Below are positions 1 through 62,683 of a stretch of 64,000 bases of DNA, in pieces. Position 1 is the stretch's first letter. The number at the start of each line of letters is the position of its first letter. Where the stretch lies: positions 58,516 through 122,515 of the forward strand of contig DYQY01000001.1 of NCBI GenBank assembly GCA_020719045.1. Reading direction: 5' to 3'. A program made the position numbers and the translations under genes. This DNA comes from Candidatus Termititenax sp. Its GTDB lineage: Bacteria; Margulisbacteria; Riflemargulisbacteria; GWF2-35-9; DYQY01. The notes below the pieces were generated by a model that had not been told where the DNA came from, ran no database searches, and worked only from the letters and a program-made list of their open reading frames with translations.

Positions 1-33
1 ATATTGCGATATTGCTTTATGAAAGGAGTTTAA

Positions 34-318
34 ATGTTGGATATAAATCATGAAAAGATGGGCCATATTTTGAAGGCACTTGCTCATCCTGTGAGGTTAC
101 AAATGGTACAATTATTGCTTGATAATGAATGTTGTGTGAATAATTTATGTAATATTTTGGATATACCACAGTCAACATCTTCACAACATTTAGGAGTTTT
201 AAGAAACAGTGGTATTGTTTACCCAACTAAGAAAGGTAATAGAACTTGTTATGTTGTTAAGAATAAGGAGGCTATCCAAGTATTAGCTATTTTAAAGAAT
301 ATGCAAAGTAAGTCATAA
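34..318 (+). CDS. ArsR/SmtB family metalloregulatory repressor
   Basis: LKALAHPVRLQMV, then ECCVNNLC (alpha3-type Cys metal site) and an HTH, QSTSSQHLGVLRNSGIV; SD aaggag upstream. Confidence 0.9.
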   Translation: MLDINHEKMGHILKALAHPVRLQMVQLLLDNECCVNNLCNILDIPQSTSSQHLGVLRNSGIVYPTKKGNRTCYVVKNKEAIQVLAILKNMQSKS

Positions 319-341
319 AATATTTAAAAAAGGAGAAATAA

Positions 342-1328
342 ATGAAAAATGAGCAAAAAAATAACAGGGAAGATGTTTATGAATTGAATAGATTAAAGAA
401 TTTTCCTATTTCTTTTTTTTCAATATCCTTAGGGCTTATTGGTTTTACACTTGCCTGGCAAAAAGCTGAGCAAATTTTAGAAATTAATTTAAAGTTTAGT
501 AGTTACTTGTTGTATTTATCTCTTTTGATTATTGTGATTACTGCTTTAATCTATATATCAAAATTAGTAAAATATCCAAGCTTAATAGGAGAAGAGTTAC
601 GTCATCCTATTAAAATAAACTTTTTTCCAATAATTGCCAAAATTTTTCTTATTACCAGTATAATTTACCTTCCATTAGATATTGTTATTTCTAAGTATCT
701 TTGGTGGATTGGTGTTGTTGCACAGTTTATTTTTTCAATTACAACTATGTCATCTTGGATTAGGCATACTAGTTTTGAAATACCACACCTTAATCCTTCA
801 TGGTTTATTCCTGTTGTTGGCTCTATTATTGTGCCAATTGCAGGCGTTACACATTTTTCGCCTGAGCTATCATGGTTCTTTTTTAGTATAGGTTTTTTTT
901 GGTGGCTAATTTTGACAGTAATAGTTGTAAATAGGATTATTTTTTTCCATCCTATTCCAGATAAATTATTGCCAACAATGTTTATTTTATTCGCCCCTCC
1001 TATCATAGGATTTATATCTTTAACAAAGCTAGTTGGAGTAACATATTTTGGCAATATGCTTTACTATTTTGGATTGTTTATGTTTATTCTTGTTATCGCT
1101 CAACTGAAAACATTTTTAAAGATAAAGTTTTATTTGTCTTGGTGGGCTTATTCTTTTCCGTTAGACGCCTTGGTTATAGGCACATTACTTATGTACCATG
1201 AGACTGGTTCAGTTTTTTTCAGAGTAATATCATGGGGATTGTTGCTGTTATTAAATTTTGTTATCTTATTATTGGGGTTTAAAACAATAATTGCCATTAA
1301 AAACAAGCAAATTTGTATTGAAGAGTAA
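342..1328 (+). CDS. TDT/SLAC1 (TehA-like) anion transporter
   Basis: About 10 hydrophobic segments; motifs PISFFSISLGLIG, HPIKINFFP, NPSWFIPVVG, LSWWAYSFP. Confidence 0.85.
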   Translation: MKNEQKNNREDVYELNRLKNFPISFFSISLGLIGFTLAWQKAEQILEINLKFSSYLLYLSLLIIVITALIYISKLVKYPSLIGEELRHPIKINFFPIIAKIFLITSIIYLPLDIVISKYLWWIGVVAQFIFSITTMSSWIRHTSFEIPHLNPSWFIPVVGSIIVPIAGVTHFSPELSWFFFSIGFFWWLILTVIVVNRIIFFHPIPDKLLPTMFILFAPPIIGFISLTKLVGVTYFGNMLYYFGLFMFILVIAQLKTFLKIKFYLSWWAYSFPLDALVIGTLLMYHETGSVFFRVISWGLLLLLNFVILLLGFKTIIAIKNKQICIEE

Positions 1329-1335
1329 GAAAATA

Positions 1336-2244
1336 ATGAGAGATATTAATGTTGATGTTTTAATAATTGGAGCTGGTCCAGCCGGTTTATCTGCAGCGAT
1401 TTATACAGCAAGGGCGGGAAAGAAGACGGTTGTATTAAAAGGAAAAACAAAGTCCCATTTGGAACTTGCACATAAGGTTGAGAACTATCCAGGGATTGAT
1501 TCAATTTCAGGGCATGAGTTATTAAAGAGATTCGAAGACCAGGCAACTAAGTTTGGAGCTGAAATAATAGTAGCAGATGTATTAGAAATGTCACTTGAGT
1601 TTGAACCTAAAATGGCAACTACTCGCTCAGAGTTTATTCAGGCTAAGGTTGTTATTATTGCCATGGGTAAAGGTGAACATAAAAAGGATATTATTGGTGA
1701 GTCTGATTTTCTTGGTGCAGGAGTGTCTTATTGTGCTACTTGTGATGGAGATTTTTATAAAGGTAAGAAGGTTGTTGTTTATGGTAACGACTTTGAGGCA
1801 GTTCATGATGCACAGATGTTGATTCAATTAGGTTGTGACGTGACGCTTGTCTCATATTGCAAAGATCAAACGTGTCCAGAAAGTTTATTGAAGCTTGCAC
1901 AGGAAAAAGGAGTTCATCTGATAAATAATACTGAGATTATTGAGGTAATGGGTTCTGGAACAGTTGAAAAGATACGCATTAAGAATAGTGATGGAGAAAT
2001 AGAGCTAGAGACTTCAGGTTTATTTATTATTCAGGCTATTCCATCTTCAGCGTTGTTGTCTAAGATGGGCGTGACTCTTTCAACTAAAGACTGTATCGCA
2101 GTTGATCGTGAGATGAAAACAAATTTCCCAGGGGTGTATGCAGCTGGCGATATTACTTGTGGTGGTTGGCAGATTGCTATAGCTAATGGAGAAGGTTCTG
2201 TTGCTGCACTGAGTGCTCTTAAGTATTTAAGAGACCATAAATGA
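1336..2244 (+). CDS. Thioredoxin reductase-like FAD oxidoreductase (degenerate NADPH site)
   Basis: GAGPAG FAD motif, GVSYCATCDG, GVYAAGD; start placed at ATG 1336 rather than the upstream TTG. Confidence 0.85.
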   Translation: MRDINVDVLIIGAGPAGLSAAIYTARAGKKTVVLKGKTKSHLELAHKVENYPGIDSISGHELLKRFEDQATKFGAEIIVADVLEMSLEFEPKMATTRSEFIQAKVVIIAMGKGEHKKDIIGESDFLGAGVSYCATCDGDFYKGKKVVVYGNDFEAVHDAQMLIQLGCDVTLVSYCKDQTCPESLLKLAQEKGVHLINNTEIIEVMGSGTVEKIRIKNSDGEIELETSGLFIIQAIPSSALLSKMGVTLSTKDCIAVDREMKTNFPGVYAAGDITCGGWQIAIANGEGSVAALSALKYLRDHK

Positions 2245-2257
2245 ATAGGAGTAAGTT

Positions 2258-2809
2258 GTGGATTGTTTAGCTTGTTCAAGTAAAAACTGTAAATCAAATG
2301 CACAAGATTGTAATGGTCAACGAGAGTCTGTTTTAAGTAATTATTCTATTGAATCACTAAAACAAAGCTACCTAAATTCCGATAAGTTGGTGGCAAATGG
2401 TCGAGCAGGACAGCTGTCTAGGATACAGGAAATAGTTGAGTATGCAAAATTGCAGAATTATAAAAATATAGCGATTGCGTATTGCTTTTGCATGGAAAAT
2501 TTAGCAAAAGAAGTGATGGAAATTTTCTCTAATGAAGGATTTAAAACAAGCTCAGTGCGTTGCACCATTAATGGTATTCGTGAAAAGCAAATCGATAGTT
2601 CGTTGGGAGAGAGTGTTAATTGTAACCCAATTGGACAAGCATTAGAAATAAATAATAGTGAGGCAGAGTTTGCTATAGATATGGGGCTTTGTATGGGTCA
2701 TGATGTGCTTTATCGTCAGCATTTAACAAAACCAGGAACAACGTTAATCGTTAAAGATCGTGTATACAATCATAATCCAGCGAAAGCATTAAAAAGTTAT
2801 AAGGAGTAG
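2258..2809 (+). CDS. DUF1847-like Cys-rich putative metal-binding protein
   Basis: SRIQEIVEYAK, CNPIGQA, GLCMGHD and KDRVYNHNP motifs; N-terminal CxxC...C. Confidence 0.75.
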   Translation: MDCLACSSKNCKSNAQDCNGQRESVLSNYSIESLKQSYLNSDKLVANGRAGQLSRIQEIVEYAKLQNYKNIAIAYCFCMENLAKEVMEIFSNEGFKTSSVRCTINGIREKQIDSSLGESVNCNPIGQALEINNSEAEFAIDMGLCMGHDVLYRQHLTKPGTTLIVKDRVYNHNPAKALKSYKE

Positions 2810-2811
2810 CT

Positions 2812-3513
2812 ATGACTACGAAAACAGGTTGTTTAGTATGTGCAAAGGAATTGAAATATGGCGAGATAAGAGAATTGTCTTGTCATTATTGCGGAGAAAA
2901 AACAGACACGCAGGTAGCTTGTGTTGATGGTCATTATGTTTGTGATAACTGTCATCAAGCAGATAGTTTAGAATTTCTGGAAACTTATATAAAAAATAGC
3001 AAGAAAACAGACCCGATTGCCATGCTTGAAGAAATCATGAAGCATCCTTCTTATAATATGCATGGACCAGAGCATCATTATATTATTCCTGCTATATTTT
3101 TAACTGCTATGAAAAATTCAGGCATAAAAATAATAGATAATTATTGGCAATTAGTTTTAGCTCGTTGTTCTGATTTGCCTGGGGGCACTTGTGGTTATTG
3201 GGGAGCTTGTGCAGCAGCTCTTGGAAGCGGGATTACTTTAAGCATTTTAAAGGAGTGCACACCTTTAAAGAAAAGTTTCTATGGTGAGATACATGGAGCT
3301 ACTGCAAATGTATTAAATTCTATTGCCAAAGTAGGTGGTCCTCGTTGTTGTAAGCGAAATGTTACATTAACCGCAGAATCACTGCTATTAACATTAAAGA
3401 ATGAATTTGGGATTGACCTTAAGGCAACCAATTATGTTTGTTCTTTTATGAGGTATAATAAAGAATGTTTGTATCAAGATTGTCCATATTTTCCTAAGAA
3501 GGCTGTGGGGTAA
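2812..3513 (+). CDS. DUF5714-like Cys-rich protein with N-terminal zinc-ribbon
   Basis: HGPEHH, GGTCGYWGAC and GGPRCCKR motifs; several N-terminal CxxC pairs. Confidence 0.7.
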   Translation: MTTKTGCLVCAKELKYGEIRELSCHYCGEKTDTQVACVDGHYVCDNCHQADSLEFLETYIKNSKKTDPIAMLEEIMKHPSYNMHGPEHHYIIPAIFLTAMKNSGIKIIDNYWQLVLARCSDLPGGTCGYWGACAAALGSGITLSILKECTPLKKSFYGEIHGATANVLNSIAKVGGPRCCKRNVTLTAESLLLTLKNEFGIDLKATNYVCSFMRYNKECLYQDCPYFPKKAVG

Positions 3514-4124
3514 TGACTAATACTTTAGTTGAAGAACGTTATGCAAAAATTGTAGACGAGTCTAACTTGGGATGTGCCAATGTCTCTGGTTTTATTGTTT
3601 TACTGGGTGGCGAAAAAGTGTTGGACTTGGGCTGTGGGAATGGCTCGCAGGTTCATCGATTTGCTAGGCTTGTAGGTAAAGAGGGTATGGCATGCGGGTT
3701 AGACACAACAGAAAAAATGATTGAGCGTGCAAAGGCTAATTATTTCCTACCAAACACCGACTACCTGGTCGGAGATATTCATAGCCTTCCATATGAGCCA
3801 GGCTTTTTTGATGTTATTACAAGTAATTGCGTTATCAACCATTCACTAAACAAGAGAAGGGTGTTTGAGGAAATTTACCGTGTAATAAAGCAAGGGGGGT
3901 TTTTTGTTATAGGAGACGTTATGGCTGTAAATAAGCTACCAGATTCAGTTGTAAATAATCCTCAAAATATCGCAGATTGTTGGGGTGGAGCAATTCCAAA
4001 AAAAGATTATTTGGACATTGTTAGTGAAGTTGGGTTTACAAGTATTGAGGTTTTAAGTTCTCGCAAGTATATTAAGAATGGGTATGGGTTGGAGAGTATA
4101 ATATTAAAGGGGGTGAAGAAATGA
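3513..4124 (+). CDS. SAM-dependent methyltransferase, ArsM (arsenite methyltransferase)-like
   Basis: VLDLGCG SAM motif plus ArsM-type Cys motifs LGCANV, SNCVINH and DCWGGA. Confidence 0.7.
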   Translation: MTNTLVEERYAKIVDESNLGCANVSGFIVLLGGEKVLDLGCGNGSQVHRFARLVGKEGMACGLDTTEKMIERAKANYFLPNTDYLVGDIHSLPYEPGFFDVITSNCVINHSLNKRRVFEEIYRVIKQGGFFVIGDVMAVNKLPDSVVNNPQNIADCWGGAIPKKDYLDIVSEVGFTSIEVLSSRKYIKNGYGLESIILKGVKK

Positions 4125-4240
4125 AGAAAGTAACAGAAGTGAATGTACATAAAGCAGAATCTTGTTGTGGTAATGCAGATAGTTCAGTTGCACAGTGTTG
4201 TGCAAAGTCAACAAAACTTGTGATGGGGTGTCATGATTAA
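4121..4240 (+). CDS. 39-aa Cys-rich peptide MKKVTEVNVHKAESCCGNADSSVAQCCAKSTKLVMGCHD, putative radical SAM RiPP precursor (missing from ORF track)
   Basis: Translated by hand. ATGA overlap with the upstream stop, TAATG overlap with the rSAM start, SD-like aagggggtg 5 nt upstream; exactly fills the intergenic gap. Confidence 0.8.
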   Translation: MKKVTEVNVHKAESCCGNADSSVAQCCAKSTKLVMGCHD

Positions 4241-5592
4241 TGGATAAATTATTTAAATCTAGGTATAACCAAATAACCAAGATGAATGAGGACCATTATG
4301 CAGTTTTTAATCCACTCTCTGGAGCTTTTGATGTAGCAGATGCTGATAGCGTTAAATCTTTTGAGAGTGGTATTCCGCGCAATGAAGAAGAGAAGAAATA
4401 CTGGCTTCTGCGTGGTTATTATTTTGCTGATAAAGCAAGCGAGAAAATATACATTGCTAAGAGGTATCAGGACTTCTTAGAGGTTTCTGAGGAAAACGAG
4501 ATTCAGTTCTTATTAGTTCCAACTTATGGTTGTAATTTTAATTGTCCTTACTGTTATCAGAAAGGGATTGATATAAATAAAAATATAATGTCACAAGAGA
4601 TGCTAGATGCTTTTGTCGATTATGTAGTTAATTATCGTAATAAAAACAATAAAAAGGTTACTGTAACTCTTTTTGGTGGTGAGCCACTATTGTTAAATGA
4701 ACATCAAAAGACACTTGTGTCTTCTTTGGTTGATAAGTTGGTAGAACATAGTATAACTTTAGCTGTTGTTACCAATGGTTATAATTTGGAAGAGTATATT
4801 CCTATATTACAAAAAGCCATGATTAAAGAAATACATGTCTCTTTAGATGGTGCAGAGACAGAACACAATAGGCGACGTAGCACAAAAGATGGCAAAGATA
4901 GCTATCAAAAGATAATGCGAGGTCTGGAAGTAGCTAAAGAGATTGGTCTTCCCTTAAATGCTAGGTTAATAACAGATAAACAAACACTTAAGACCTTCCT
5001 TGAGTTAGCTAAGGACTTGGAGAAACGAGGGTTTTTGGATTTACCAAAAGGTATGTTTAAAACGTCATTGGGTCGTAATTATGAGCTGATAGACGAGTCT
5101 ATGACACAAGCTGATTTGCTATCTTTAGATGAAATGCATAGAGAGTATACAGAGTTGATGTTGCTTAATCCAGTTTTAAGAAAACTACATATTCCTAACT
5201 ATTTTGGTGTTAAGAAAATGGTGGATTCTGGAGAGATGTATGTTCCCTCTTTTGACACTTGTCCGGCAGGCAAATCGGAATTTGTCTTTGATGCTTCTGG
5301 GAATATTTTTGGTTGTACTGCAAGCTGTGGTCGTGAGGGGTACGAGCTTGGTAGTTATTTCCCAGTACTAAAGTTTAATGAGCAAGTCTTAAAAGATTGG
5401 CAAACACGTAATATCTTAAATATTGCTGAGTGCGTAGATTGTTCTGTTGGGGTGGTGTGTGGCGGAGGCTGTGGTGTTATAGCCAAGGACCGTAATGGTG
5501 AAATCCATTCGCCAAATTGTAAGCCTATCAAAGAGGTTATGGATATAGGAATAAATTACTATAGGAAAGAGATTTTAGATAAAGCAAAGTAA
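4240..5592 (+). CDS. Radical SAM/SPASM-domain protein, probable peptide maturase
   Basis: CNFNCPYC motif, FGGEPLL, 8 Cys in the C-terminal SPASM region (CPAG..GCTASC..CVDC..CGGGC..C); N-terminal extension with YAVFNPLSG. Confidence 0.9.
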   Translation: MDKLFKSRYNQITKMNEDHYAVFNPLSGAFDVADADSVKSFESGIPRNEEEKKYWLLRGYYFADKASEKIYIAKRYQDFLEVSEENEIQFLLVPTYGCNFNCPYCYQKGIDINKNIMSQEMLDAFVDYVVNYRNKNNKKVTVTLFGGEPLLLNEHQKTLVSSLVDKLVEHSITLAVVTNGYNLEEYIPILQKAMIKEIHVSLDGAETEHNRRRSTKDGKDSYQKIMRGLEVAKEIGLPLNARLITDKQTLKTFLELAKDLEKRGFLDLPKGMFKTSLGRNYELIDESMTQADLLSLDEMHREYTELMLLNPVLRKLHIPNYFGVKKMVDSGEMYVPSFDTCPAGKSEFVFDASGNIFGCTASCGREGYELGSYFPVLKFNEQVLKDWQTRNILNIAECVDCSVGVVCGGGCGVIAKDRNGEIHSPNCKPIKEVMDIGINYYRKEILDKAK

Positions 5593-5618
5593 AAATATAA
5601 TAAATATGGAGGCAAATA

Positions 5619-6908
5619 ATGGTTAAAGATATTTCAGCAGTAGAATACGAAGAGTTAGTATTAAAGAGCAAGGGTCCAGTAATTGTAGATTTTTACTCTA
5701 CAGAATGTCCTCCTTGTGAAGCTTTAGCCTCAAAGTATAATTATTTTGCTGGTCTGTATGACAAAGAGATTTCATTTTATAAAATATTTAGGCAAGGTAA
5801 TAAAGAGCTATCTTCAGGACTAAACGTCAAAGGTTCTCCAACAGTATTATTCTATAAAGATGGCAAAGAAATAGGCAAAAGATTGTCAGGCGCTGTTTTG
5901 AAAAGCGAGTTAAAGAATTCTATTTTGGGAAATTTTGATGTTGAAGAGAAAGATAAAGTAGATAAGCGTGAAGTTATTGATTGCGATGTAGCAATTATTG
6001 GTGGAGGTCCAGCTGGGCTAGCAGCTGCAATTTACACGGCTCGTGCAAAACTGAAAACAGTTGTGGTGGATAAAGGACAACCTGGAGGATTAGTTAACCT
6101 AACCCATCTTGTATCAAATTATCCTGGTACTGGCGAAGATATTAAGGGATTTATGTTAATGCATCATACAACAGAGCAAGCAAAGGCTTCTGGTGCAGAG
6201 ATAATTATGGCAGCAGATGTGACTAGTATAAATCTATCCGAGAAGACTATGGACATTGATGATGATAAGACAATTAATGCTAAAACTATTATTCTTGCTA
6301 CTGGTTCAAAGCCAAGGGAATTGGGTATTCCAGGTGAGAAGGAGTTGTTTGGTAAAGGAGTTTCTTATTGTGCTACTTGTGATGGTGCTTTTTATGAAGG
6401 AAAGGAAGTTTATGTTATTGGTGGTGGAAACTCTGCTGTTGAAGAATCTTTGTTTTTAACAAAGTTTGTTAATAAACTTACGATAATTCATCAGTTTGAT
6501 TCATTTCAAGCAAATGCAGTTGCAATTGATGAGGCTTTAAGTAATCCAAAGATTGAAGTTTTGTGGTCACATGAGCCAAGAGCCTTTTTGGGTAATGAGG
6601 GGTTTAAAGCAATAGAGGTAGAGGACTTGAAAACAGGAGAGAGAAAGATTCTAGATAAAGCAGATGGGCTATTTGTTTTTGTTGGGTATCAGCCACAAAA
6701 TGCTTTATTTAAAAACGATTTAACTTTAGACAAATGGGGAACAGTTGTTGCAACAGAAGATATGGAAACAAATATTCCAGGTGTTTTCGTGGCTGGAGAT
6801 GTTCGTAGCAAAAAATACAGACAAATAACAACTGCTGTAAGCGATGGGACAATAGCTGCATTACAAGCAGAAAAATATATTAAGGAAAAAGCTCAGCAAA
6901 ATAAATAA
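5619..6908 (+). CDS. Thioredoxin-thioredoxin reductase fusion (N-terminal Trx)
   Basis: N-terminal VDFYSTECPPC Trx domain, then GGGPAG, CATC, GGGNSA and GVFVAGD. Confidence 0.9.
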   Translation: MVKDISAVEYEELVLKSKGPVIVDFYSTECPPCEALASKYNYFAGLYDKEISFYKIFRQGNKELSSGLNVKGSPTVLFYKDGKEIGKRLSGAVLKSELKNSILGNFDVEEKDKVDKREVIDCDVAIIGGGPAGLAAAIYTARAKLKTVVVDKGQPGGLVNLTHLVSNYPGTGEDIKGFMLMHHTTEQAKASGAEIIMAADVTSINLSEKTMDIDDDKTINAKTIILATGSKPRELGIPGEKELFGKGVSYCATCDGAFYEGKEVYVIGGGNSAVEESLFLTKFVNKLTIIHQFDSFQANAVAIDEALSNPKIEVLWSHEPRAFLGNEGFKAIEVEDLKTGERKILDKADGLFVFVGYQPQNALFKNDLTLDKWGTVVATEDMETNIPGVFVAGDVRSKKYRQITTAVSDGTIAALQAEKYIKEKAQQNK

Positions 6909-6943
6909 TTGTTATTAATCTTTTTCTATAAGAAAATAGTAGT

Positions 6944-7744
6944 ATGAGCTTACAACTAACTTTGCTTGGAACAGGGACATCGGACGGCGTTCCACTTATT
7001 GGTTGTAGTTGTCCTGTCTGTGTAAGCACAAATCCAAGAAATAAACGGTTAAGAACATCCGCGTGGATTCATAATGAAGACCAATCAATAAGCATTCTTA
7101 TAGATTGTGGACCAGATTTTAGAGAGCAAGCATTAGTTTATGGTATTAAGCGAGTTGATGCTGTTCTTATTACTCATACCCATTGGGACCATATAGCTGG
7201 TATAGATGACCTTAGGCCATTGGCGTTAAAAAATGGGAAAGAAATCCGCCGAGGTAATAAAATTGATATTTACGTTTTCAGCGAACTTGCTGAGAGTCTA
7301 AAACGACCATTCCCATACATCTTTGGTGAGCCAGAACAGATAGGTGGAGGTGTTCCTGCTGTTGAGATAAAGGAACTTATAGAAGGACAGGTTTTTTATA
7401 TAAAGGGTATCCGTTTTGAGCCACTAGTTGGGTTTCACGGTAAGATGAAAGTTTTTGGCTTCTCTTTTAAAGATACTGTATTTATTACAGATGTAAACGA
7501 GCTTCCACATAATACTGTAGACTTAATTAAGAATAAGAAAACAGTTATTTTGAACGCATTAAGGTATAGTGAACACTCAACTCATTTTAATGTTAATCAA
7601 AGCATAGAAATGTTAGTTAAAGTAGCTCCAGCTCAGGCATATTTAGTACATACTACTCACGATTTAGAATATGATAAATTAAACAGTGAATTGCCTGATG
7701 GTATTGAAATGGGATACGATGGATTAAGTATTAATCTTAAATAG
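6944..7744 (+). CDS. Metallo-beta-lactamase fold hydrolase, PhnP-like
   Basis: LGTGTSDGVPLIGCSCPVC, LIDCGPDFREQ and HTHWDH. Confidence 0.85.
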   Translation: MSLQLTLLGTGTSDGVPLIGCSCPVCVSTNPRNKRLRTSAWIHNEDQSISILIDCGPDFREQALVYGIKRVDAVLITHTHWDHIAGIDDLRPLALKNGKEIRRGNKIDIYVFSELAESLKRPFPYIFGEPEQIGGGVPAVEIKELIEGQVFYIKGIRFEPLVGFHGKMKVFGFSFKDTVFITDVNELPHNTVDLIKNKKTVILNALRYSEHSTHFNVNQSIEMLVKVAPAQAYLVHTTHDLEYDKLNSELPDGIEMGYDGLSINLK

Positions 7745-7754
7745 AAGGCATTTT

Positions 7755-7943
7755 ATGAAATATGTTTGTAGCATATGTGGCTTAGAGAAGTATTCAGATA
7801 ATAAAACGGAAATCCCTATGTGTTGCAGTGAGAAGATGTTGCCTTGTACAAAAGTTCAGGATGCTGAGATGGCTAAATTTACTGATGAAGATGGTCCTTG
7901 TGATGATAGTAGGGGGACACAAAGAATAATCGTTAAAGAGTAA
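7755..7943 (+). CDS. Small Cys-rich protein, desulforedoxin-like CxxC-x14-CC
   Basis: YVCSICG...PMCCSEKM; SD-like gaagg upstream; last ORF of the + strand run. Confidence 0.55.
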   Translation: MKYVCSICGLEKYSDNKTEIPMCCSEKMLPCTKVQDAEMAKFTDEDGPCDDSRGTQRIIVKE

Positions 7944-9375
7944 ATATTCTAATCTTAGTTGTTTTTTCACTGTTAAGGTAAGGAAGACCTGCTACAAAAA
8001 GAACCTTATCCCCTTTGTTAAGGAAAGTTTCAGTTGTTATTTTGTTTGAAATATCCTGTAGCGACTTGTCGTCAAATTCTACCGAATATATGTCATGATA
8101 AACTGGGAGTATTCCCCAAAACAGATTTAGCTCCTTACAGAGCTTAGCCTGATTGCTTAGTGCAATTATTGGAAACTTAATCCTAGCTTTGGAAAGAACT
8201 GTAGCCGTGTATCCGCTAGTTGTGATAGCAACAACAGCCTTAATATCTAAATCATTACAAAGGTTGGAGATTGCTATGTCGTGATTCATGTCTATGCTTC
8301 TGTCCGTGTGATGCTCCATAAGAAATTTTAAAGAATCTTTGTAGTATTCGCTTTTTTCTATTTCTTCTGCAATGCGTTCCATTATATTAACTGCTTGTAT
8401 TGGAAATTTACCTACAGATGTTTCTGCTGACAGCATGATGGCATCAGTTCCATCTAAGATAGAGTTTGCAACATCATTTGCTTCAGCTCTTGTAGGGATT
8501 GGATCATTAATCATTGATTCCAACATTTGGGTGGCAATAATAACTGGTTTTCCCGCTATGTTAGATTTTTCTACTATCATTTTTTGAACAAGAGGAACTT
8601 TTTCTGGAGAGAGCTCAATTCCTAAGTCGCCTCTGGCAACCATTATTCCGTCAGCCTCTCGTATTATTTCATCGATTCTTTCAACTGCTTGAGGCTTTTC
8701 TATCTTCGCAATTACTGGAATATTTTTCCCGTAAGATTGTATTATTTGTTTTGCTTGAATAATATCTTTTTCAGAACGAACAAATGATAATGCGATATAG
8801 GATATGTCGTTTTGTGCGGCAAAATGGATGAACTCTTTGTCTCTTTCTGTAATTGCTGGGGTGCTTACTTCTGTTCCTGGTAGATTAATTCCTTTTCTGG
8901 ATGATAGTATTCCTCCATTAATTACTGTACAGCCTATTCTTTTGTTATTTACCCAATCTGCTTTAAGTCTTATTTTGCCGTCATTTATAAAGATATCATC
9001 TCTAGGTTTAACATCTTTAACAATATTCTTATAGTCAACAGGAATGTCTTGGTTTTCTATTTTATCTGCAGTAGTCAGAACAATCTCTTGTCCATCTTCA
9101 AGTAGGATATCTTCCTTTAACTGTCCCATTCTTATTTTGGGGCCTTGTAGGTCTATTAGAATAGCAATGTTGCATTTCTTTTCATTCGAGATAGCTTTTA
9201 TGAGCTTAATGGTTTCTTGATGCTTCTCTGGGCTACCGTGTGAACTGTTAATGCGGAAAACATCAACGCCAGCATCTATTAGAGAGCTTATCATTTGATG
9301 GTTGTCGCTGGCAGGACCAACAGTTATAACTATTTTAGTGTTATTTGGTTTTTTAATAGTTTGCATGTCGAACAT
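7933..9375 (-). CDS. pyk: Pyruvate kinase
   Basis: TKIVITVGPA, DLQGPKIR, GIMVARGDLG, ATQMLESM and DAIMLSAET. Confidence 0.97.
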   Translation of the reverse strand: MFDMQTIKKPNNTKIVITVGPASDNHQMISSLIDAGVDVFRINSSHGSPEKHQETIKLIKAISNEKKCNIAILIDLQGPKIRMGQLKEDILLEDGQEIVLTTADKIENQDIPVDYKNIVKDVKPRDDIFINDGKIRLKADWVNNKRIGCTVINGGILSSRKGINLPGTEVSTPAITERDKEFIHFAAQNDISYIALSFVRSEKDIIQAKQIIQSYGKNIPVIAKIEKPQAVERIDEIIREADGIMVARGDLGIELSPEKVPLVQKMIVEKSNIAGKPVIIATQMLESMINDPIPTRAEANDVANSILDGTDAIMLSAETSVGKFPIQAVNIMERIAEEIEKSEYYKDSLKFLMEHHTDRSIDMNHDIAISNLCNDLDIKAVVAITTSGYTATVLSKARIKFPIIALSNQAKLCKELNLFWGILPVYHDIYSVEFDDKSLQDISNKITTETFLNKGDKVLFVAGLPYLNSEKTTKIRIFTL

Positions 9376-12100: not shown

Positions 12101-12106
12101 ACAATC

Positions 12107-12390
12107 GGCCAGTCGAGTCATCGTCTGTATTTATTTACGGGAGGAAAGTCCGGACTCCATAGAGCACTGTAGCGGGTAACGCCCGTCCGGCGCAAGCCGA
12201 GGACTAGTGGAACAGAAACGATCCTATTAAGTTAGGCTGAAACGGCTAAACTCTACAGGGAGCAAGACCAAATAGGCAAAGAGGAGTTGCTCGCTCCATT
12301 TGGATTTGCGGGTAGGTTGCTAGAGATAAACAGCAATGTTTGTCCAAGATAAATGATGACATAGAACAGGATCCGGCTTATGGACTGGCC
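12107..12390 (+). ncRNA. rnpB: RNase P RNA (compact type A-like, about 284 nt)
   Basis: P1 GGCCAGTC/GACTGGCC, P2 GTCATC/GATGAC, and conserved GAGGAAAGTCCGG and AGAACAGGATCCGGCTTA blocks. Confidence 0.95.
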
Positions 12391-12398
12391 ACTTATTT

Positions 12399-14576
12399 TT
12401 ATTCGTCCTCAAGAGCTACAAGCTCCGCAGAAACACTGCGTAGGCGACTTGAAAGACGCTTTGCGAAATTCCTCGTGAGTGTGAGGAAAATTGCCTGATG
12501 GTCCTTCAATAATTTCTTATAAGACTCTACTGTCAAAACGAAAAGACTACCTTCCTCTGTTGCTGTAACAGATGATGAACGCGGCTCTTCAGAAAACAAT
12601 GCAATTTCTCCAAAATGTTCGCCTGCGCCATAAGTAATTAGCCTTCTTTGATCGTCAATATTATTCGAAGGACAGTACAGAACACTGAACTCCCCTCTCC
12701 TAATAAAATACACCTCACATGCCACATCGCCTGCCGAGTAAACCAAATCACCTACCATGAAATCACGACTTACAAGATACCCTGATAAGATTTCTAGCTG
12801 AGTATCTGAAAGTCCCTGACATGACGTTAGTTCAGACAAGGGAAGCAACGTATCTTTTTTGGATACGGTTGCTTTATGTCCATGACGAATAAGTAAACTA
12901 TCTTCACAGGCTTCCGTTGCCAAATCTATATCTATAAAAAGATGCTCTTCGCCCACGCTTCTAAGAATCTCTAACTCATCCAGCATATTCTTAAATTTGC
13001 TTTTCTTCATTAACCCTGACAGACAAATAGTCTTACCTGTCTTAAGTATATGGTCTACCAATTCCTTTAACATCTGACCGCCAGTTAGGTCGATGGATTG
13101 AACATGACGCATATCTAAAATAATCTCTTGTACTACCTTGATTTCTTTTTCAATAATTTCTGAAAACCGATCTACTGTACCAAAAAAAACACTTCCCTCT
13201 AGTTCTACTACTATAATCTCTCTTCCATGACGATTTAAGATTTTATTGGCGACATCGCTTCTAAGCTTACGTGAGCGCATTACATTCCCATAACGAATAC
13301 TTCTAACAACACGAGATGCTATCTGACTCTTTATAAAAACTATAAAAGCCAAAAGCAAACCTATTCCTACTGCTATAATTAAATCCACTAAAACCGTAAT
13401 TATTGTTACTGCCAACATAATAAGCACATCTTCTTTTACCGATTTCTTTGAAATCAACTTAAAGCTCCAAATATCAATCATTTTTACTGCTGTTACCAAC
13501 AAAATTCCAGCAAGGACTGACATTGGAATCCACTGTGCAAAAACACCTAAAAAGATTAGCACAAACAACAGAATTATACTGTGCACCATTCCAGCTATCT
13601 TTGTTTTCCCTCCTGCGTCAATATTGCATACAGTGCGAACTGTTGCTCCTGCCCCTGGTAGACCACCAAATAAGCCTGAAAGCACGTTACCGATACCCTG
13701 ACCAATTAATTCACGATTACTGTTATGCTTTTCTTTAGTTTTAAGATCAGCAATAACAGAAGTAAGCAAAGTATCTATTGCGCCCAGCAACCCTATGATA
13801 ATTGCTTGCTGAATCATAAGTTTCCAAATATCTAAATCAAACAAAGCAAAAAATGATAAATGCAAGAAAAAAACAGGCTTAGGAAGAACATTAGGAATTG
13901 GCCCGATTATTAGTGAATTATTTTGTAGGCTAAGAAAGGATGGTTCAATAAAATACCCAACTGCTAAATAAGCGACCACTCCACTTATTAATGCAAACAA
14001 TGAAGATGGGATTCTTTTCGTTATTATTGGTAACAATACCATGCTCAAGACTGTTACTACTCCAACTCCAATTATTAGAATATTCTTAGTGTGAAATATT
14101 GTTAAGATTTCAGACCATCTTGTCTGGCTAGTAACCCCCAAAAAAGGCTTAATCTGGCTAATAAAAATTATCACAGCAATACCATTCATAAATCCAGCCA
14201 AAACGGAATAAGGAATAAACTTAATAAGCTTCCCCGTACGGGTAATGCCCAAAATAATTTCCACCAGTCCTCCCATAATAATGGTAATGGAAAAGATAAG
14301 TATAACTGCTGCAATCTGATCCTGCTGAGGTATCTTATGCAAAAAACCAGTTGCAATTACCGTTGCTATCGTGGATTTTGTAACCACAGACATCGGACCA
14401 GTTGGGCCTGTTACCTGTGAGGGGCAACCACCAAAAAGCGATGCAAAAAAACCAGTAAAAATAGCGCCTGTTAAACCAGCCACTGCTCCTATTGGAATAA
14501 AGGCAGGACCTAGTGGGGAAAAAGCGGCTACGCCAAATGCAATTGCCAATGGCAATGCAATGACCGAAACAACCAT
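12399..14576 (-). CDS. SulP/SLC26 anion transporter with STAS and cyclic-nucleotide-binding domains (start may lie upstream, about 14624)
   Basis: ALPLAIAFG, GPTGP, NRELIGQGIGN, GATVRT; STAS LEGSVFFG..DLTG; cNMP domain GEHFGEIAL..PRSSSV. Confidence 0.92.
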   Translation of the reverse strand: MVVSVIALPLAIAFGVAAFSPLGPAFIPIGAVAGLTGAIFTGFFASLFGGCPSQVTGPTGPMSVVTKSTIATVIATGFLHKIPQQDQIAAVILIFSITIIMGGLVEIILGITRTGKLIKFIPYSVLAGFMNGIAVIIFISQIKPFLGVTSQTRWSEILTIFHTKNILIIGVGVVTVLSMVLLPIITKRIPSSLFALISGVVAYLAVGYFIEPSFLSLQNNSLIIGPIPNVLPKPVFFLHLSFFALFDLDIWKLMIQQAIIIGLLGAIDTLLTSVIADLKTKEKHNSNRELIGQGIGNVLSGLFGGLPGAGATVRTVCNIDAGGKTKIAGMVHSIILLFVLIFLGVFAQWIPMSVLAGILLVTAVKMIDIWSFKLISKKSVKEDVLIMLAVTIITVLVDLIIAVGIGLLLAFIVFIKSQIASRVVRSIRYGNVMRSRKLRSDVANKILNRHGREIIVVELEGSVFFGTVDRFSEIIEKEIKVVQEIILDMRHVQSIDLTGGQMLKELVDHILKTGKTICLSGLMKKSKFKNMLDELEILRSVGEEHLFIDIDLATEACEDSLLIRHGHKATVSKKDTLLPLSELTSCQGLSDTQLEILSGYLVSRDFMVGDLVYSAGDVACEVYFIRRGEFSVLYCPSNNIDDQRRLITYGAGEHFGEIALFSEEPRSSSVTATEEGSLFVLTVESYKKLLKDHQAIFLTLTRNFAKRLSSRLRSVSAELVALEDE

Positions 14577-25224: not shown

Positions 25225-28200
25225 ATGTTTCAAAGGTATATTGCCTATCTATTATTAATCTTTTCTTGTTTGCTTTTTGGAGTATCAGATTCGTTTGTTG
25301 TCAGCCAAAATGATGACTTGAGTTCTGATGAACTACAAAATATTATATCGCTTATCCCAACCGAAAATCTGCAAGAAATATCCTTTCTCATTCCTTCAGA
25401 AAACCCTAATACAGACACTACAAACTTAAATATCTCAACCGAAAGTATCCCAACGCAAAACATTGAACCTCTTCTGCCACCACTACCACCGCCCAAAGTA
25501 ATCTTTACCAATGAACTATTCAAACCAAAAGAAATACAAAAAACTAATAGATTACTAGTCATTACTGATAATCGCTCATACCTTGAATCCAAAAAGAAAA
25601 AAGAGCCTAGTCCGGATGTAGACGATGAATGGAAAGACTTTAAATGGGAACAATGGGAAGAAGCTAAAGACCCGCTTGCTGCCTTCAAGTCTCCACCATA
25701 TGTTGACGGTTTCGGAGAAATAAAAGTTTACTCCTTACAAGTAAATGCAGACAACAAGAATAGAGCCTACGCGCTTAATGACGAAGTCTATAAGTTCTTA
25801 ACTTCAAAAGTTAAGGAGGTAGCATTCCAAATAGATTACAGATTTAATTTACTTATTCAAGCAAAAATAAGCGAAGAAGCAGAAGTCTACTATAATGTCT
25901 CGCAAGAACCAGACCTGCCTCAAAAAACAGATGTTTCCCTTAAAGTAAGACAAACCTGGGTAAGATTTGGATACACAGAAAAAAGATTTGTTGTCGGCTC
26001 TTTTACCGATGTAAGCAAAAAGATTGACGGTGTATCTGTTGAAGGTACAGAAGGTCCATTTACCTATAACTTTGCGTTTGGTTCTGAAAAAAGCAAGTCA
26101 GATGTTTTTACCAGACAAGGTAATGGTGGGGATGAGTACGAACTAAGAAATAAACCTGTATTAGAAAAATCTGTTCAGGTTTGGGTGAACGATAGACTTC
26201 AAACAATTAACAAAGACTATACTGTAAACTATTTTGAAGGAAAAGTAATTTTTGCTACCATTAAAACCTCTGCTGAAACCTTAAAATTCTCTTACCAATA
26301 CACCAACCCAATAGAAGAATTCATTCCCATTGCAAGTAACGTAAATTTAATAGGTATTAATGCAAAATATGATAACAAAAACAAACAAACTATAATAAAA
26401 AAACTAGGCTCATATACTGAAACTTTCGCTTCTTTACCAGCTGAAAACGAGATAAGGGTTTTTAGCTACCCTATAGAGCTTAACTCAGAAAAAATATATG
26501 CCAACAATACTGAGCTCCAAAAGAATGTTGATTATTATATCCAATATTCGTCCGGAGAAATTTTCTTCCATAACAAAAATATATCGAATATTAAAATCAG
26601 TTATATGTCCCCTGAAACAAAACTCCATCAAGAAAAACTACAAGGTAACGGAGAAAAAATAGCCTTCAACATAAAAAACACCCCTATCTTAAACAACAGT
26701 GAAGTTGTATCTCTTCAAGGAAATATCTTAGAAAAAAACAAAGATTACAAAATAGAAAACGAAAAAGGAATGCTTATTTTAAAGTACCCAATTGCCTCAA
26801 ACGAAACAGTTTCAATATCGTATCGCCAACTGCAATTCGAAACAAAAACCTTTAGCAGCGCAACTGACGCTGACTTTAACATAAACTTTGCCTACATAAG
26901 ACAATTTGCAAAGTCTCAAGACGATATTAACTCCAAGCTCACATCTGAAAGGATTACATCATCAACCAACTTTTCTTCAACTGTAACAATTAATCTCAAA
27001 AACTGGCCTATTGTAAATTCTTCAGTGTCTTTATTACTAAACAATTCTACAATTACAGCTGATTCGATTAGCCTTGACTACTACACTGGATTTATGACGA
27101 TAAATGCTTCTGCCCTAAACACTGCAACTGGCACCCTACAAATAAATTATTCATACTATAAAGAGTTTGGCCCACAACAATGGAACTTCTCTGGTTCTAG
27201 CAGGGAACTAGAAAACTATATTTTCTATAATAATAAAATTGGATATAGAATCAAATCAAACCTGCCTCACCCTATGAAATATGACCCAAACAGCCAATAT
27301 ATTAAAGTTGAACATAAAAACAACGCAAACATTTATAAAACGCTTAAAAGAGGCTATGACTATGATATTCTTTTTAATGTAGATTCCGTAAAAGAAGGCC
27401 AAGTCTACTTAATACTCTATCATAGCCACGGAGTTACGGTAGACTCTAGTTCAGAGCTTGTAAGTTATGGGCTACCTTCATCACTAGGCAATGATGACCT
27501 ATTTAAAATAACTTACTACTATACTAATTCTAATATTCCTGACTCAGGTGAAATAATCAACGAACAGTTTGCTGTTGTTTACAATCAACAATTTGATCAA
27601 AACTTTGGATATTCTGTTGAAGTTGCTCGTTCCCATAAAGAATACTCGAAATCCACCAAAACAACCACAGATGTTCTCGCTGGAACAGGTGAATTCAACA
27701 AAGCATACACTCTCTCAGCAACCAATATTGTTGAAAACTCAGAAGTAGTCTACTTAAATGAAAATGTGGCTATTAGAGATATTAACTACTATATAAACTA
27801 TAACACTGGTCAAATAACCTTTATCAATCTTAATCCAAGTGCAACAGACTATATTAGAATTGAATTTAGCTATTTTACCAAGAGTTCTGGCGGACAAGTC
27901 ACCAAATATGATGAAGCTGGTTCTGCTATTGGAATTAAGGCAAATTTGAAAAATACATTCCACGACACAAGTACCCAATTATTTTTTGTTGATGACAACT
28001 TCTCTCCAGTAGGAACATCACAGTACAGAAAAGGCTCTAATGTATTTATATTAGGCTCAAAAATGAGACCTTCAAAAGAATTAAACATTAATACAGAGCT
28101 CTTTACCAACAATCAAAAATCAACTTTTCAATCAATCTCCGCTGGAAGATATTTAGGCTATAGTGAAAATAAATATAAACTCGGTGCATCCTACGCACCA

Positions 28201-32154: not shown

Positions 32155-33689
32155 TGCTTTCTTGGAAAAATCGGCTCTGGTTGATTTAGCATTCTGTCTT
32201 TAGTAAAGAATCCCCAAGTAAATGGATTTTGAAGCCTCTCTTCTTCTGATATATTTAATTGTTTGTAAAATAACGCTGTAACTGTAGGCATAAAAGGACT
32301 CAACCATGCTGTCACAATTCTTAGCGTTTCAATTAAATGAACCATCACTGTTGCTAGTTTCTCCATATTACCCTCTTTTTGCAATGTCCAAGGAGCCATC
32401 TCCTCAACAAACTTGTTAGCCCTTCTTATGACTGTAAAAATCTCCTCAAGCGCTATAGATAACTTAAAGGCATCGATCTTTGCAGGAATGCTGGATTCTA
32501 AGGCAATTACCATTTTCTTTAAACCCAACTCTTCCTCTGAAAATAAAGCATCGTTCGCTGATGGAACCTTAAGATCAAAGTACTTCTTTGTCATATTTAA
32601 AGTTCTATTTAGTAAGTTTCCATAATCATTAGCAAGGTCGCTATTGAATCTTTGCTTCATTGTTTCGTCTGTATAAGAACCATCTAACCCAAAAACCATT
32701 TCTCTTGATATATAGTATCTAAAAGGGTCTACACCGTATTCGTCAATAATAGCAAAAGGGTCTAATACATTACCCTTGGACTTTGACATCTTTTCTCCGC
32801 CTTGATAAATAAAGCCATGACCAAATACATGTTCTGGTACCTCTACTCCCATAGCCATTAACATTGCAGGCCATATTACCGCATGAAACTTGAGAATATC
32901 CTTACCTATTAAATGTACACTTGCTGGCCAATATCTTTCAAAAAAAGCATTATCTTTTTTATACTTAATGCCTGTTAAATAATTTAATAACGCATCAAAC
33001 CAAACATAAACGTAGTGTTTTTTTTCAGTATTCTCTAACTGTGGGAACTCTATTCCCCAGCTTATTGTTGTCCGACTAATACAAAGGTCTGTTAAGCCAC
33101 TTTCAACAAAACTAATAACTTCATTTTTTCTGCTTTCTGGTAATACAAAGTCTGGAACTTTCTTAATGTGGTCCAAAATCTTTTGTTGAAACTCAGATAA
33201 TCTAAAGAAATATGCTTCTTCTTGAAGCATTATTACTTCTCTTCCACAATCAGGGCATTTGCCATCCACTAATTGAGTTTCTGTAAAATATGCTTCACAA
33301 GGTCTACAATAAAGACCTTCATAGGAACCTAAATATATATAACCATTATCATATACTTGCTTTATTGTATCCTTAACAATTTCTTGATGCTCAATGTCTG
33401 TTGTTCTTATGAAACGATCATTAGAGATGTTTAGCTTTACCCAGAGTTCTTTAAACCTTAAGACAACACTATCAACTAATTCTTTTGGTGTTATTCCTTT
33501 TGCTTCAGCTGCTTTTTCTATTTTCTGACCATGCTCGTCTGTACCTGTTAGGAAAAAAACATCTTTACCTCTAAGCCTGTAGAACCTTGCTAAAATATCT
33601 GCAATTATTGTTGTGTAACAGTGGCCAATGTGGGGAATATCGTTAACATAATAAATAGGGGTCGTGATATAAACTGAATCCTTTACCAC
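32145..33689 (-). CDS. metG: Methionyl-tRNA synthetase (short form)
   Basis: YITTPIYYVN, HIGH, GTDEHG and KMSKS. Confidence 0.97.
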   Translation of the reverse strand: MVKDSVYITTPIYYVNDIPHIGHCYTTIIADILARFYRLRGKDVFFLTGTDEHGQKIEKAAEAKGITPKELVDSVVLRFKELWVKLNISNDRFIRTTDIEHQEIVKDTIKQVYDNGYIYLGSYEGLYCRPCEAYFTETQLVDGKCPDCGREVIMLQEEAYFFRLSEFQQKILDHIKKVPDFVLPESRKNEVISFVESGLTDLCISRTTISWGIEFPQLENTEKKHYVYVWFDALLNYLTGIKYKKDNAFFERYWPASVHLIGKDILKFHAVIWPAMLMAMGVEVPEHVFGHGFIYQGGEKMSKSKGNVLDPFAIIDEYGVDPFRYYISREMVFGLDGSYTDETMKQRFNSDLANDYGNLLNRTLNMTKKYFDLKVPSANDALFSEEELGLKKMVIALESSIPAKIDAFKLSIALEEIFTVIRRANKFVEEMAPWTLQKEGNMEKLATVMVHLIETLRIVTAWLSPFMPTVTALFYKQLNISEEERLQNPFTWGFFTKDRMLNQPEPIFPRKQCI

Positions 33690-48819: not shown

Positions 48820-48896
48820 TGGTGCGCCTGGAGGAATTCGAATCCCCGGCCTTCTGTTCCGTAGACAGACGCTCTATCCAGCTGAGCTACAGGCGC
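48820..48896 (-). tRNA. tRNA-Arg (ACG)
   Basis: GCGCCTG acceptor stem, TAGCTCAGCTGGATAGAG D-arm, TCTGT-CTACGGA-ACAGA anticodon arm, GATTCGAATTC T-arm, encoded CCA. Confidence 0.97.
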
Positions 48897-57129: not shown

Positions 57130-57153
57130 TTATTGTTTCTTCCTTTCTATGCC

Positions 57154-59508
<2,355 letters not shown>

Positions 59509-59519
59509 TCATTCTCTCC

Positions 59520-60326: not shown

Positions 60327-60328
60327 AT

Positions 60329-62463: not shown

Positions 62464-62683
62464 ATTACTACTCCTTATTATTTTTATATATTCAACCCTT
62501 ATTCATCATAGGTGTTTATATCTAGAACAACTTTAATTTTATCGATTGTTATCATGAAATAATCTCCACAACTTATAAGATTATATTCCTAGTGTTATCA
62601 ACAAAATTATAATTATTTAACTTATCCCCTTTTTATCTAAACTTATTAATAAGTTATTAACAACATTATCAACAAAATAAAAT
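62464..62683. other. Probable oriC (dnaA-dnaN intergenic), AT-rich, with variant DnaA boxes
   Basis: TTATCAACA at 62595 and 62666, TTATTAACA at 62654, TTATCCCCT at 62622; position is typical of Firmicutes-type origins. Confidence 0.6.

Follow-up and report, generated by a model that had tools for sequence, protein, structure and literature searches.

A 64,000-nucleotide stretch of the genome of Candidatus Termititenax sp. (GenBank assembly GCA_020719045.1, contig DYQY01000001.1, positions 58,516 to 122,515; hereafter the window) carries an eleven-gene operon. At its heart lie genes for a truncated, ArsM-like S-adenosylmethionine (SAM) methyltransferase (MTase), a short cysteine peptide, a radical SAM/SPASM enzyme (rSAM), a DUF5714 protein and a fusion of thioredoxin to thioredoxin reductase (Trx-TrxR). 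These five parts form a core conserved as a module in some 80 anaerobic species, and only by inference is it linked to arsenic. As a tentative reading, to which we give somewhat less than an even chance, we propose that the core is a peptide-assisted, thioredoxin-recycled module for methylation or detoxification of a metalloid.

A conserved core inside a lineage-specific operon

Homologues of rSAM number in the hundreds. One genome per species was scanned with an alignment of these homologues, rSAM-DUF5714 proteins included, and the scan gave 80 species-level loci, against all open reading frames (ORFs) of which the eleven proteins of the window were matched. The contig of the window was also surveyed, as locus L081; positions are window coordinates unless they are given with a locus number.

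An ArsM-like MTase gene lies upstream of rSAM in all 71 loci whose upstream DNA extends to 1 kb or more. Between the two, all surveyed loci with upstream DNA have the peptide gene except three from Marinamargulisbacteria. Of 79 loci, 68 have the Trx-TrxR fusion adjoining the cassette and 53 encode DUF5714, fused to rSAM in 39 of them and separate in 14. The order MTase-peptide-rSAM(-DUF5714)-TrxTrxR is thereby syntenic in about 70 of the 80 independent species-level loci, in several phyla. The cassette occurs in Spirochaetes, Brevinema, Marinamargulisbacteria, 'UBA8530', one metagenome-assembled genome of Acidobacteriota and many Clostridia, among them Thermoanaerobacterium (L050, L051, L053), Desulfitobacterium, Carboxydothermus, Syntrophomonas and Acididesulfobacillus. 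Beyond the core nothing is conserved, the commonest non-core neighbour family being present in at most 12 of the 80 loci. The eleven-gene operon is thus a lineage-specific elaboration of the five-part core. ArsR and DUF1847 accompany the core in L081 and in its two closest relatives, L083 and L084; a transporter and a small TrxR-like gene do so in L081 and L084, not in L083.

An earlier note on this DNA, made from the letters alone, had singled out the unusual company of an ArsM-like MTase, a cysteine peptide, an rSAM/SPASM enzyme, Trx-TrxR and DUF5714. This company has proved to be a conserved module, down to the fusion of rSAM with DUF5714. The neighbourhood survey that the note called for returned conserved co-occurrence for the core and none for the peripheral genes. 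The broader idea, that all eleven genes make up one conserved pathway, had to be given up: ArsR, the transporter, the small TrxR-like gene, DUF1847, the metallo-beta-lactamase (MBL) hydrolase and the 62-residue protein stand outside the conserved core and are confined to close relatives or to the contig of the window.

One could also imagine that unrelated redox, metal and peptide-modification genes have come to lie together by chance or by local juxtaposition. This would suit the MBL hydrolase, the 62-residue protein and the TDT transporter, none of which is conserved with the core. For the core itself the survey refutes it, and we give it practically no weight, because the core order recurs independently across phyla, rSAM and DUF5714 are fused in so many loci, and start and stop codons overlap.

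The radical SAM enzyme and its peptide

The rSAM protein is a peptide maturase, as follows from its RRE-like N-domain, its SPASM motif, CteB as the best match in both sequence and fold, and its NCBIfam relatives. The radical SAM motif CxxxCxxC reads CNFNCPYC, with C98, C102 and C105 invariant, and the SPASM set Cx9-15Gx4C...Cx2Cx5Cx3C...C is complete, with C341, G354, C359, C398, C401, C407, C411 and C427 invariant. The label SPASM relies on this seven-cysteine motif and on full-length matches to SPASM maturase models (PapB, TIGR04463); the Pfam SPASM model itself has no match on rSAM. The best NCBIfam matches are maturases of Cys-rich peptides, namely CefB (145.8 bits against a cutoff of 600), TIGR04463 (130.7 against 525) and PapB (128.3 against 340), and these equivalogs, like SCIFF ScfB (89.7 against 425), all score below cutoff. 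By sequence, the closest solved relative is CteB (E 3.7e-15). The AlphaFold2 (AF2) model, with a predicted local distance difference test score (pLDDT) of 92.0, likewise finds CteB as the best Foldseek match (E ~1e-18, TM 0.62-0.69, ~470 columns). In this model the N-domain has strands at residues 11-14, 19-24 and 29-34, then three helices, with pLDDT >90; the predicted arrangement is RRE-like, beta3-alpha3.

The precursor gene stands directly upstream of rSAM. It is preceded by a strong ribosome-binding site (RBS), AAGGGGGTG, and its TAA overlaps the ATG of rSAM (TAATG), a stop/start overlap that amounts to translational coupling. In the window the 39-residue peptide reads MKKVTEVNVHKAESCCGNADSSVAQCCAKSTKLVMGCHD. 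The family spans 35-40 residues with the consensus M[KR]x[VI]T...CC...AQCCSK[ST]S.[IV]VAGCH[DN]-COOH: a short leader-like start M[KR]x[VI]T, a variable basic stretch, usually a CC pair, and then AQCCSK[ST]S.[IV]VAGCH[DN], which is always the C-terminal end of the protein. From Spirochaetes to Clostridia these ~17 C-terminal residues are almost fixed.

The peptide belongs to no Pfam or NCBIfam family, and Pfam at E<=10 gave only zinc-ribbon-like noise. A search of 1.84 billion representative proteins returned three 39-residue peptides and one unrelated Cys-rich protein of 1369 residues, and no fusions of the peptide to MTase or rSAM. The large protein (P0242, not in the window) is the sole one of its size that matches the peptide, in six stretches with 29% identity, and is presumably a Cys-rich repeat protein. 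In the Marinamargulisbacteria loci L002 (4495-8656), L008 (8323-12652) and L007, the stop codon of MTase overlaps the start of rSAM, and the TrxR-like gene, MTase, rSAM and Trx-TrxR are kept; a hidden peptide was sought there by motif and among Cys-rich small ORFs, and none was detected.

With the CteB/PapB-type maturases (SCIFF, ranthipeptides) the cassette shares the RRE-like N-domain, CxxxCxxC, the two-cluster SPASM motif and a Cys-rich precursor directly upstream. What sets the cassette apart is a precursor whose core hardly varies and lies at the C-terminus, without protease or exporter; the ArsM-like MTase, the DUF5714 fusion and Trx-TrxR are partners not known for those families either. 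These differences matter for the idea of a secreted natural product of the ranthipeptide or sactipeptide type, antimicrobial or signal, for which MTase would be a tailoring enzyme and ArsR and TDT a local regulator and exporter. The kinship of rSAM with thioether-forming maturases (CteB, PapB, CefB, TIGR04463), its RRE-like domain, the leader-like start before a Cys-rich core and the transporters adjoining some cassettes would all agree with such a ribosomally synthesised and post-translationally modified peptide (RiPP). We nonetheless consider it unlikely. Cores of secreted RiPPs normally diversify, and here the C-terminus is nearly frozen. No leader peptidase, protease, ABC exporter or immunity gene is conserved with the core in the 80 loci. 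Finally, a secreted product leaves Trx-TrxR, DUF5714 and the ArsM cysteine triad described below without a role.

The same constancy recalls peptide cofactors. Like mycofactocin (MftA/B/C) and pyrroloquinoline quinone (PQQ; PqqA/D/E), the cassette combines a short conserved peptide with a fixed C-terminal end, an rSAM/SPASM enzyme with RRE function, an intracellular logic and a dedicated redox partner. It differs in that the top matches of rSAM include neither MftC nor PqqE, in having Cys, His and Asp in place of the Val-Tyr or Glu-Tyr residues, and in its methyltransferase with the Cys triad, which has no counterpart in those systems. The product might accordingly be an intracellular peptide cofactor or thiol redox mediator in which no metalloid takes part: rSAM would remodel the C-terminal GCH[DN], in the way that MftC acts for mycofactocin and PqqE for PQQ, and/or introduce cross-links, the ArsM-like enzyme would methylate the peptide, and Trx-TrxR would be the redox partner of the finished molecule. 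We regard this as the main rival and a serious one, possible if doubtful. Across phyla the peptide core hardly varies and never leaves the C-terminus, as in precursors of cofactors rather than of antibiotics, it is accompanied by neither protease nor exporter, and a dedicated reductase is conserved with it. In six loci desulfoferrodoxin genes directly follow the cassette, Hdr-like genes lie nearby, and classical ars genes are not enriched. The evidence on the other side comes from the methyltransferase and from the genes around the cassette.

A minimal ArsM-type methyltransferase with an invariant cysteine triad

MTase has NF008823 as its best NCBIfam match (E 5.9e-48) and ArsM structures as its best matches in the PDB, and it contains the motif DLGCGNG. 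In an alignment to the structures of CmArsM and Chlamydomonas ArsM, its C21, C106 and C156 fall on the As(III)-binding C72, C174 and C224 of CmArsM, and this triad is invariant in all 74 cassette MTases. The nearest relatives outside the cassette are canonical ArsM proteins with 34-41% identity. With ArsM/AS3MT (CmArsM, 4FR0; Chlamydomonas ArsM, 5EVJ) the cassette enzyme thus shares the class I SAM fold, the closest sequence kinship and the aligned cysteines. It departs from canonical ArsM in its size of ~203 residues, in being always coupled to a peptide and an rSAM/SPASM enzyme, and in standing outside ars operons.

Cassette MTases are without the C-terminal domain of canonical ArsM and without its N-terminal insert of ~44 residues bearing S-CC...(S)CC. 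The missing insert carries the N-terminal cysteines (CmArsM C44, or the bacterial CC...CC loop) of the first methylation and disulfide relay. In the cassette, a CC-bearing peptide is encoded beside an MTase that misses exactly the CC...CC insert. ArsM catalysis oxidises one cysteine pair per methyl transfer, which thioredoxin and thioredoxin reductase recycle. This thioredoxin dependence is known for ArsM, and the cassette encodes a thioredoxin system in cis.

For the cofactor idea, the presence of the RiPP C-terminal methyltransferase LahSB (6UAK) among the PDB relatives of MTase is welcome. ArsM is clearly nearer, with 85 bits against 51 for LahSB. Moreover, an enzyme that methylates a peptide at O, N or S would not need the As(III)-ligand cysteines, and ArsR and exporters of metal(loid) type stand beside the cassette in several lineages. 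A relation to TehB is far weaker than that to ArsM (Pfam E 0.0029).

ArsM-family enzymes are coupled genetically to a radical SAM enzyme in both known organoarsenical pathways, ArsL/ArsM for arsinothricin and ArsS/ArsM for arsenosugars, just as MTase and rSAM are strictly coupled here. In its strongest form, the idea of the earlier note would be a covalent organo-metalloid peptide: a carbon radical of the peptide would trap As(III) bound to thiolates, a C-As bond would result, and the ArsM-like enzyme would then methylate the product. Under such a scheme the radical SAM step would serve a purpose, whereas simple peptide-assisted methylation leaves it without one. We hold it to be quite improbable. 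Radical SAM enzymes of the ArsL/ArsS type, unlike rSAM, are not SPASM/RRE maturases and have no peptide substrate, and SPASM maturases are without precedent for formation of a C-As bond. MTase scores far below the ArsM models of the arsinothricin and arsenosugar pathways (NF040538, 84.9 bits against a cutoff of 500; NF040539, 90 against 240; NF038099, 75.5 against 400). Sequence, besides, does not separate C-As chemistry from ordinary thioether chemistry.

Thioredoxin fusion, DUF5714 and DUF1847

In the Trx-TrxR fusion the thioredoxin site is the unusual [DE]C[PA]PC and the reductase site is CATC, while the HRR signature for NADPH is mostly replaced by HQFD. The small TrxR-like protein of the window also has a CATC redox centre; YGNDFEA takes the place of its second dinucleotide-binding GxGxxA, so that it is probably not dependent on NAD(P)H. 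Its gene was first listed at 1291-2244 and most likely begins with the ATG at 1336, the start that gene callers choose (302 residues). Homologues lie upstream of MTase in the Marinamargulisbacteria loci L002 and L008.

Many rSAM homologues are ~700 residues long, with rSAM fused at its C-terminus to a complete DUF5714, zinc ribbon included, in what is known as a Rosetta-stone fusion. In DUF5714 a double zinc-ribbon-like region at the N-terminus precedes a helical domain, and ~15 Cys and 5 His are invariant. Its AF2 model (pLDDT 92.8) found no match in the PDB (best E 3.3), and its sequence hit nothing meaningful among PDB chains; the fold therefore gives no functional lead. Against the NCBIfam model MbdU, which describes a double selenoprotein of 468 residues with two selenocysteines, DUF5714 scores 140 bits for a cutoff of 600, covers only model positions 39-269 of 468 and has Cys throughout. 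MbdU was reportedly named by Haft and Tolstoy in 2025.

DUF5714 is also found outside the cassette, alone or paired with DUF1847, and DUF1847 is an accessory partner of DUF5714. One such adjacent pair lies in Clostridium cylindrosporum (L086, 5394-6744). About six Firmicute loci of the survey contain DUF1847 as well. In several Firmicute loci, among them L013, L015 and L047, its gene overlaps one of the AIR-synthase family, HypE/ThiL/SelD-like, all below cutoff. For DUF5714 and DUF1847, Pfam at E<=10 yielded only zinc-ribbon-like noise, with no link to the C_GCAxxG_C_C or desulforedoxin models.

ArsR, its operator and the transporters

In L081, L083 and L084 arsR is the first gene of the operon. 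Aligned with CVC-type ArsRs from L049 and L029, the window protein carries ECCVNNLC at the position of the classical ArsR/CadC CVC; C34 is invariant, and the third Cys is Ser in L083. Just upstream of the RBS of arsR lies a palindrome of ~30 bp, TATATCGTATTATTGC(N)ATA(N)T(N)CGATAT, the presumed operator, present in L081 (5746-5773), L083 (7671-7704, a perfect 17+17 nt) and L084 (88-119). Sensing of sulfide or sulfite in the manner of BigR/SqrR was considered for this ArsR and rejected (56 bits against a cutoff of 155); the 94-residue protein is, we assume, devoid of the C-terminal sensing cysteine of that family.

The TDT carrier is lineage-specific and, judged from its sequence, a putative exporter; it scores 132.6 bits on the TehA model, whose cutoff is 342. 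In the nearest relative, the 87%-identical L084, an SBF/Acr3-like carrier occupies the TDT position, and L083 has no transporter. The sole notable NCBIfam match of the L084 carrier is ACR3 arsenite efflux, full-length, with 78.5 bits against a cutoff of 282.8. In eight Firmicute loci the 10-kb flanks contain split gene pairs for a PF03773 (ArsP_1) permease, several of them directly beside the cassette, with faint similarity to the SO_0444 Cu/Zn and SaoE efflux proteins. TDT, Acr3-like and ArsP_1 carriers thus bring three unrelated exporter families with metal(loid)-exporting members to the side of the cassette.

The operon resembles ars operons in having an ArsR/SmtB repressor whose alpha3 region bears thiolates, an operator palindrome and the order of repressor, exporter and enzymes. 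It deviates from them by TDT instead of ArsB/Acr3 and by an ArsR motif with CC, not CVC. TehA/TehB, too, combine a TDT carrier with a SAM methyltransferase; here TDT stays below the TehA cutoff and MTase is ArsM-like, not TehB-like.

About 7 of the 80 loci have ArsR-family genes within 10 kb of the cassette, and L049 is the only one in which such a gene immediately precedes MTase. Putative DNA-binding proteins of the DUF134 family are encoded near the cassette in eleven Firmicute loci (L013, L015, L020, L033, L036, L042, L047, L063, L068-L070), and the one inspected (L047, 7954-8430) has a Cys-rich C-terminal tail. At those loci, DUF134 proteins may serve as regulators in place of ArsR.

A possible mechanism and its weak points

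Our reason to think of a metalloid is fourfold: the invariant ArsM cysteine triad, the CC-type ArsR with its palindromic operator, the three exporter families and the dedicated thioredoxin system. In what we take as the most likely course of events, the peptide would be the substrate of rSAM and would remain inside the cell, the core having neither protease nor exporter. By analogy with the CteB/PapB relatives, rSAM would add at least one intramolecular cross-link to it, most plausibly a Cys thioether, with DUF5714 possibly acting as a metal- or Fe-S-bearing helper. Since other residues can replace its first CC pair, the peptide has as invariant thiols a CC and one Cys ten residues later. Those that stay free, which resemble the S3 sets of ArsD and ArsR, could bind a soft trivalent metalloid, for example As(III) or Sb(III), and deliver it to the truncated ArsM at its S3 site. 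The peptide thiols would at the same time replace, in trans, the CC-rich N-terminal loop in the disulfide relay of canonical ArsM. SAM-dependent methylation of the metalloid would follow, and the Trx-TrxR fusion would re-reduce the disulfides arising in each cycle. In the organism of the window, product or substrate may leave through the TDT carrier, and ArsR would derepress the operon once an inducer occupies its CC site.

Several observations speak against this proposal, and the metalloid connection of the cassette is still inferential. MTase stays under the cutoff of the ArsM family (163.7 against 263 bits) and is without two ArsM regions. Classical ars genes (arsB, acr3, arsC, arsA, arsD) are not enriched near the cassette in the 80 loci, and ArsR heads the operon only in the clade of the window. 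The first CC pair of the peptide varies to CAC, CSC and even SSSS (SSSS in L019 and L038), and the three Marinamargulisbacteria loci keep MTase, rSAM and Trx-TrxR without a detectable peptide. Homology of the peptide to the N-terminal loop of ArsM was tried and rejected (hhalign probability 3%, over 8 columns around the first CC); the likeness is retained as a functional analogy only. Desulfoferrodoxin and Hdr-like genes near some cassettes would equally fit a general role in thiol or oxidative stress. Nor does peptide-assisted methylation explain convincingly, in chemical terms, why a radical SAM enzyme should take part.

A bolder version envisages an arseno-RiPP. In this version the peptide tailored by rSAM would itself carry the methylated metalloid, covalently or quasi-covalently, the truncated ArsM would act on the peptide-bound substrate only, and DUF5714 would be a new metalloid-handling fold. 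This is a long shot. If true, the arseno-RiPP, whether organoarsenical or organoantimonial, would add a third route, by way of a peptide, to organo-metalloid biosynthesis in anaerobes.

The pathway had been called possibly undescribed in the earlier note, and in this respect we agree: there is no NCBIfam equivalog, and in the searchable literature nothing came up on the peptide motifs, DUF5714 or DUF1847, on a pairing of ArsM with SPASM, or on a ranthipeptide together with thioredoxin reductase and methyltransferase. The arsenylated peptide that the note had contemplated is another matter, as nothing shows one. The module is apparently undescribed, is built from known kinds of parts and does not qualify for curated membership of any named family tested.

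If the peptide-assisted ArsM system is true, it would show strict anaerobes feeding and recycling a metalloid methyltransferase by means of a dedicated thiol peptide and reductase; to our knowledge, many of the anaerobes with the cassette are probably without glutathione. Such a system would, moreover, link radical SAM RiPP chemistry functionally to metalloid metabolism for the first time. A new peptide cofactor would instead join PQQ and mycofactocin in their very small class. On either reading, DUF5714, a widespread Cys/His-rich protein, gains its first concrete functional context. Thermoanaerobacterium includes genetically tractable strains, and since the cassette is present in this genus, its function should be directly testable.

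The operon and the rest of the window

The eleven co-directional genes described in the earlier note are all there, as plus-strand ORFs in the ORF listing (Table 1). Across 34-7943 neighbouring genes overlap by 1-4 nt or stand no more than 35 nt apart, and a convergent pyruvate kinase gene, 7933-9375 (-), ends the operon. The note was also right that most products have CC or CxxC motifs: reading the translations by eye, we found them in nine of eleven, TDT and MTase being the two without. Its family calls are borne out by Pfam and NCBIfam, and three of its labels call for adjustment: SPASM, as described above, and two more. The hydrolase at 6944-7744, taken for PhnP-like, is better labelled an MBL protein of the PRK02113/GPMC type, and the desulforedoxin-like character of the 62-residue protein holds at the level of motif only. 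In keeping with its statement on arsB, acr3 and arsC, no ArsB, Acr3/SBF, ArsC or LMWPc Pfam family occurs among the called genes listed, which span the greater part of the window except ~34-41 kb, the place of one giant ORF, and of which a few have no Pfam match.

Table 1. Genes of the operon and its operator, in window coordinates
Feature	Position	Strand	Basis
Conserved palindromic operator, 3' half	1..18	.	full element just 5' of arsR RBS, cut by window start
ArsR/SmtB repressor	34..318	+	PF01022 E 1.8e-13; NF033788 78 bits vs cutoff 55
TDT/SLAC1-family (TehA-like) anion transporter	342..1328	+	PF03595 E 2.9e-48; TIGR00816 168.7 bits, below cutoff 237
Small TrxR-like flavoprotein	1336..2244	+	TIGR01292 266 bits, below cutoff 343
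DUF1847 Cys-rich protein	2258..2809	+	PF08901 E 1.7e-28
DUF5714 protein	2812..3513	+	PF18978 E 4.8e-56, 189.5 bits vs cutoff 26.2
Minimal ArsM-type SAM methyltransferase (MTase), 203 aa	3513..4124	+	NF008823 163.7 bits, below cutoff 263
39-aa Cys peptide, precursor or carrier	4121..4240	+	homologues between MTase and rSAM at other loci
Radical SAM/SPASM peptide maturase (rSAM), RRE-like N-domain (predicted)	4240..5592	+	PF04055 E 8.4e-24
Trx-TrxR fusion	5619..6908	+	TIGR01292 346 bits, above cutoff 343; PF00085 E 2.3e-17
MBL-fold metallohydrolase	6944..7744	+	PF12706 E 2.1e-32; NF038231 240 bits, NF002553 232 bits, both below cutoff
62-aa Cys-rich protein	7755..7943	+	desulforedoxin-type CxxC...CC motif

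The last two genes of the operon have no match in the 80 surveyed loci and are absent from L083, the sole close relative with downstream DNA. The MBL hydrolase, co-transcribed and not conserved with the cassette, is probably a passenger. The 62-residue protein is specific to the contig of the window and belongs to no family, without any Pfam match even at E<=10. Over 27 residues it aligns with the desulfoferrodoxin N-domain at 41% identity (pairwise E 0.009), its CxxC...CC included. In six Firmicute loci (L013, L033, L037, L042, L045, L062) a gene for desulfoferrodoxin, a superoxide reductase, stands directly 3' of Trx-TrxR, and these genes echo the desulforedoxin-type motif of the 62-residue protein.

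The window is chromosomal: gyrA, gyrB, a DciA gene, recF and dnaN lie at 54.6-62.5 kb, and RNase P RNA, enolase and phosphoglycerate kinase are also encoded. The block at 54664-63940 (-) is of the origin type, with gyrA, gyrB, the DciA-domain gene, recF, dnaN and then a probable dnaA at 62684-63940 (-), a label that is positional only and comes without a recorded Pfam match. From this block of replication genes, the window adjoins the chromosomal origin of a DciA-type bacterium. The RNase P RNA is of class A (12105-12396 (+), 209.7 bits), and a tRNA-Arg(ACG) lies at 48820-48896 (-). A SulP-type anion transporter of 725 residues, fused to STAS and cyclic-nucleotide-binding domains, is encoded at 12399-14576 (-). 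Two giant ORFs, 33689-41542 (-) with 2617 residues and 25225-30303 (+) with 1692 residues, have almost no Pfam annotation. The larger one shows a faint FlgD_ig match only. MotA/MotB and FliG-like genes lie downstream, at 41.5-45.4 kb.

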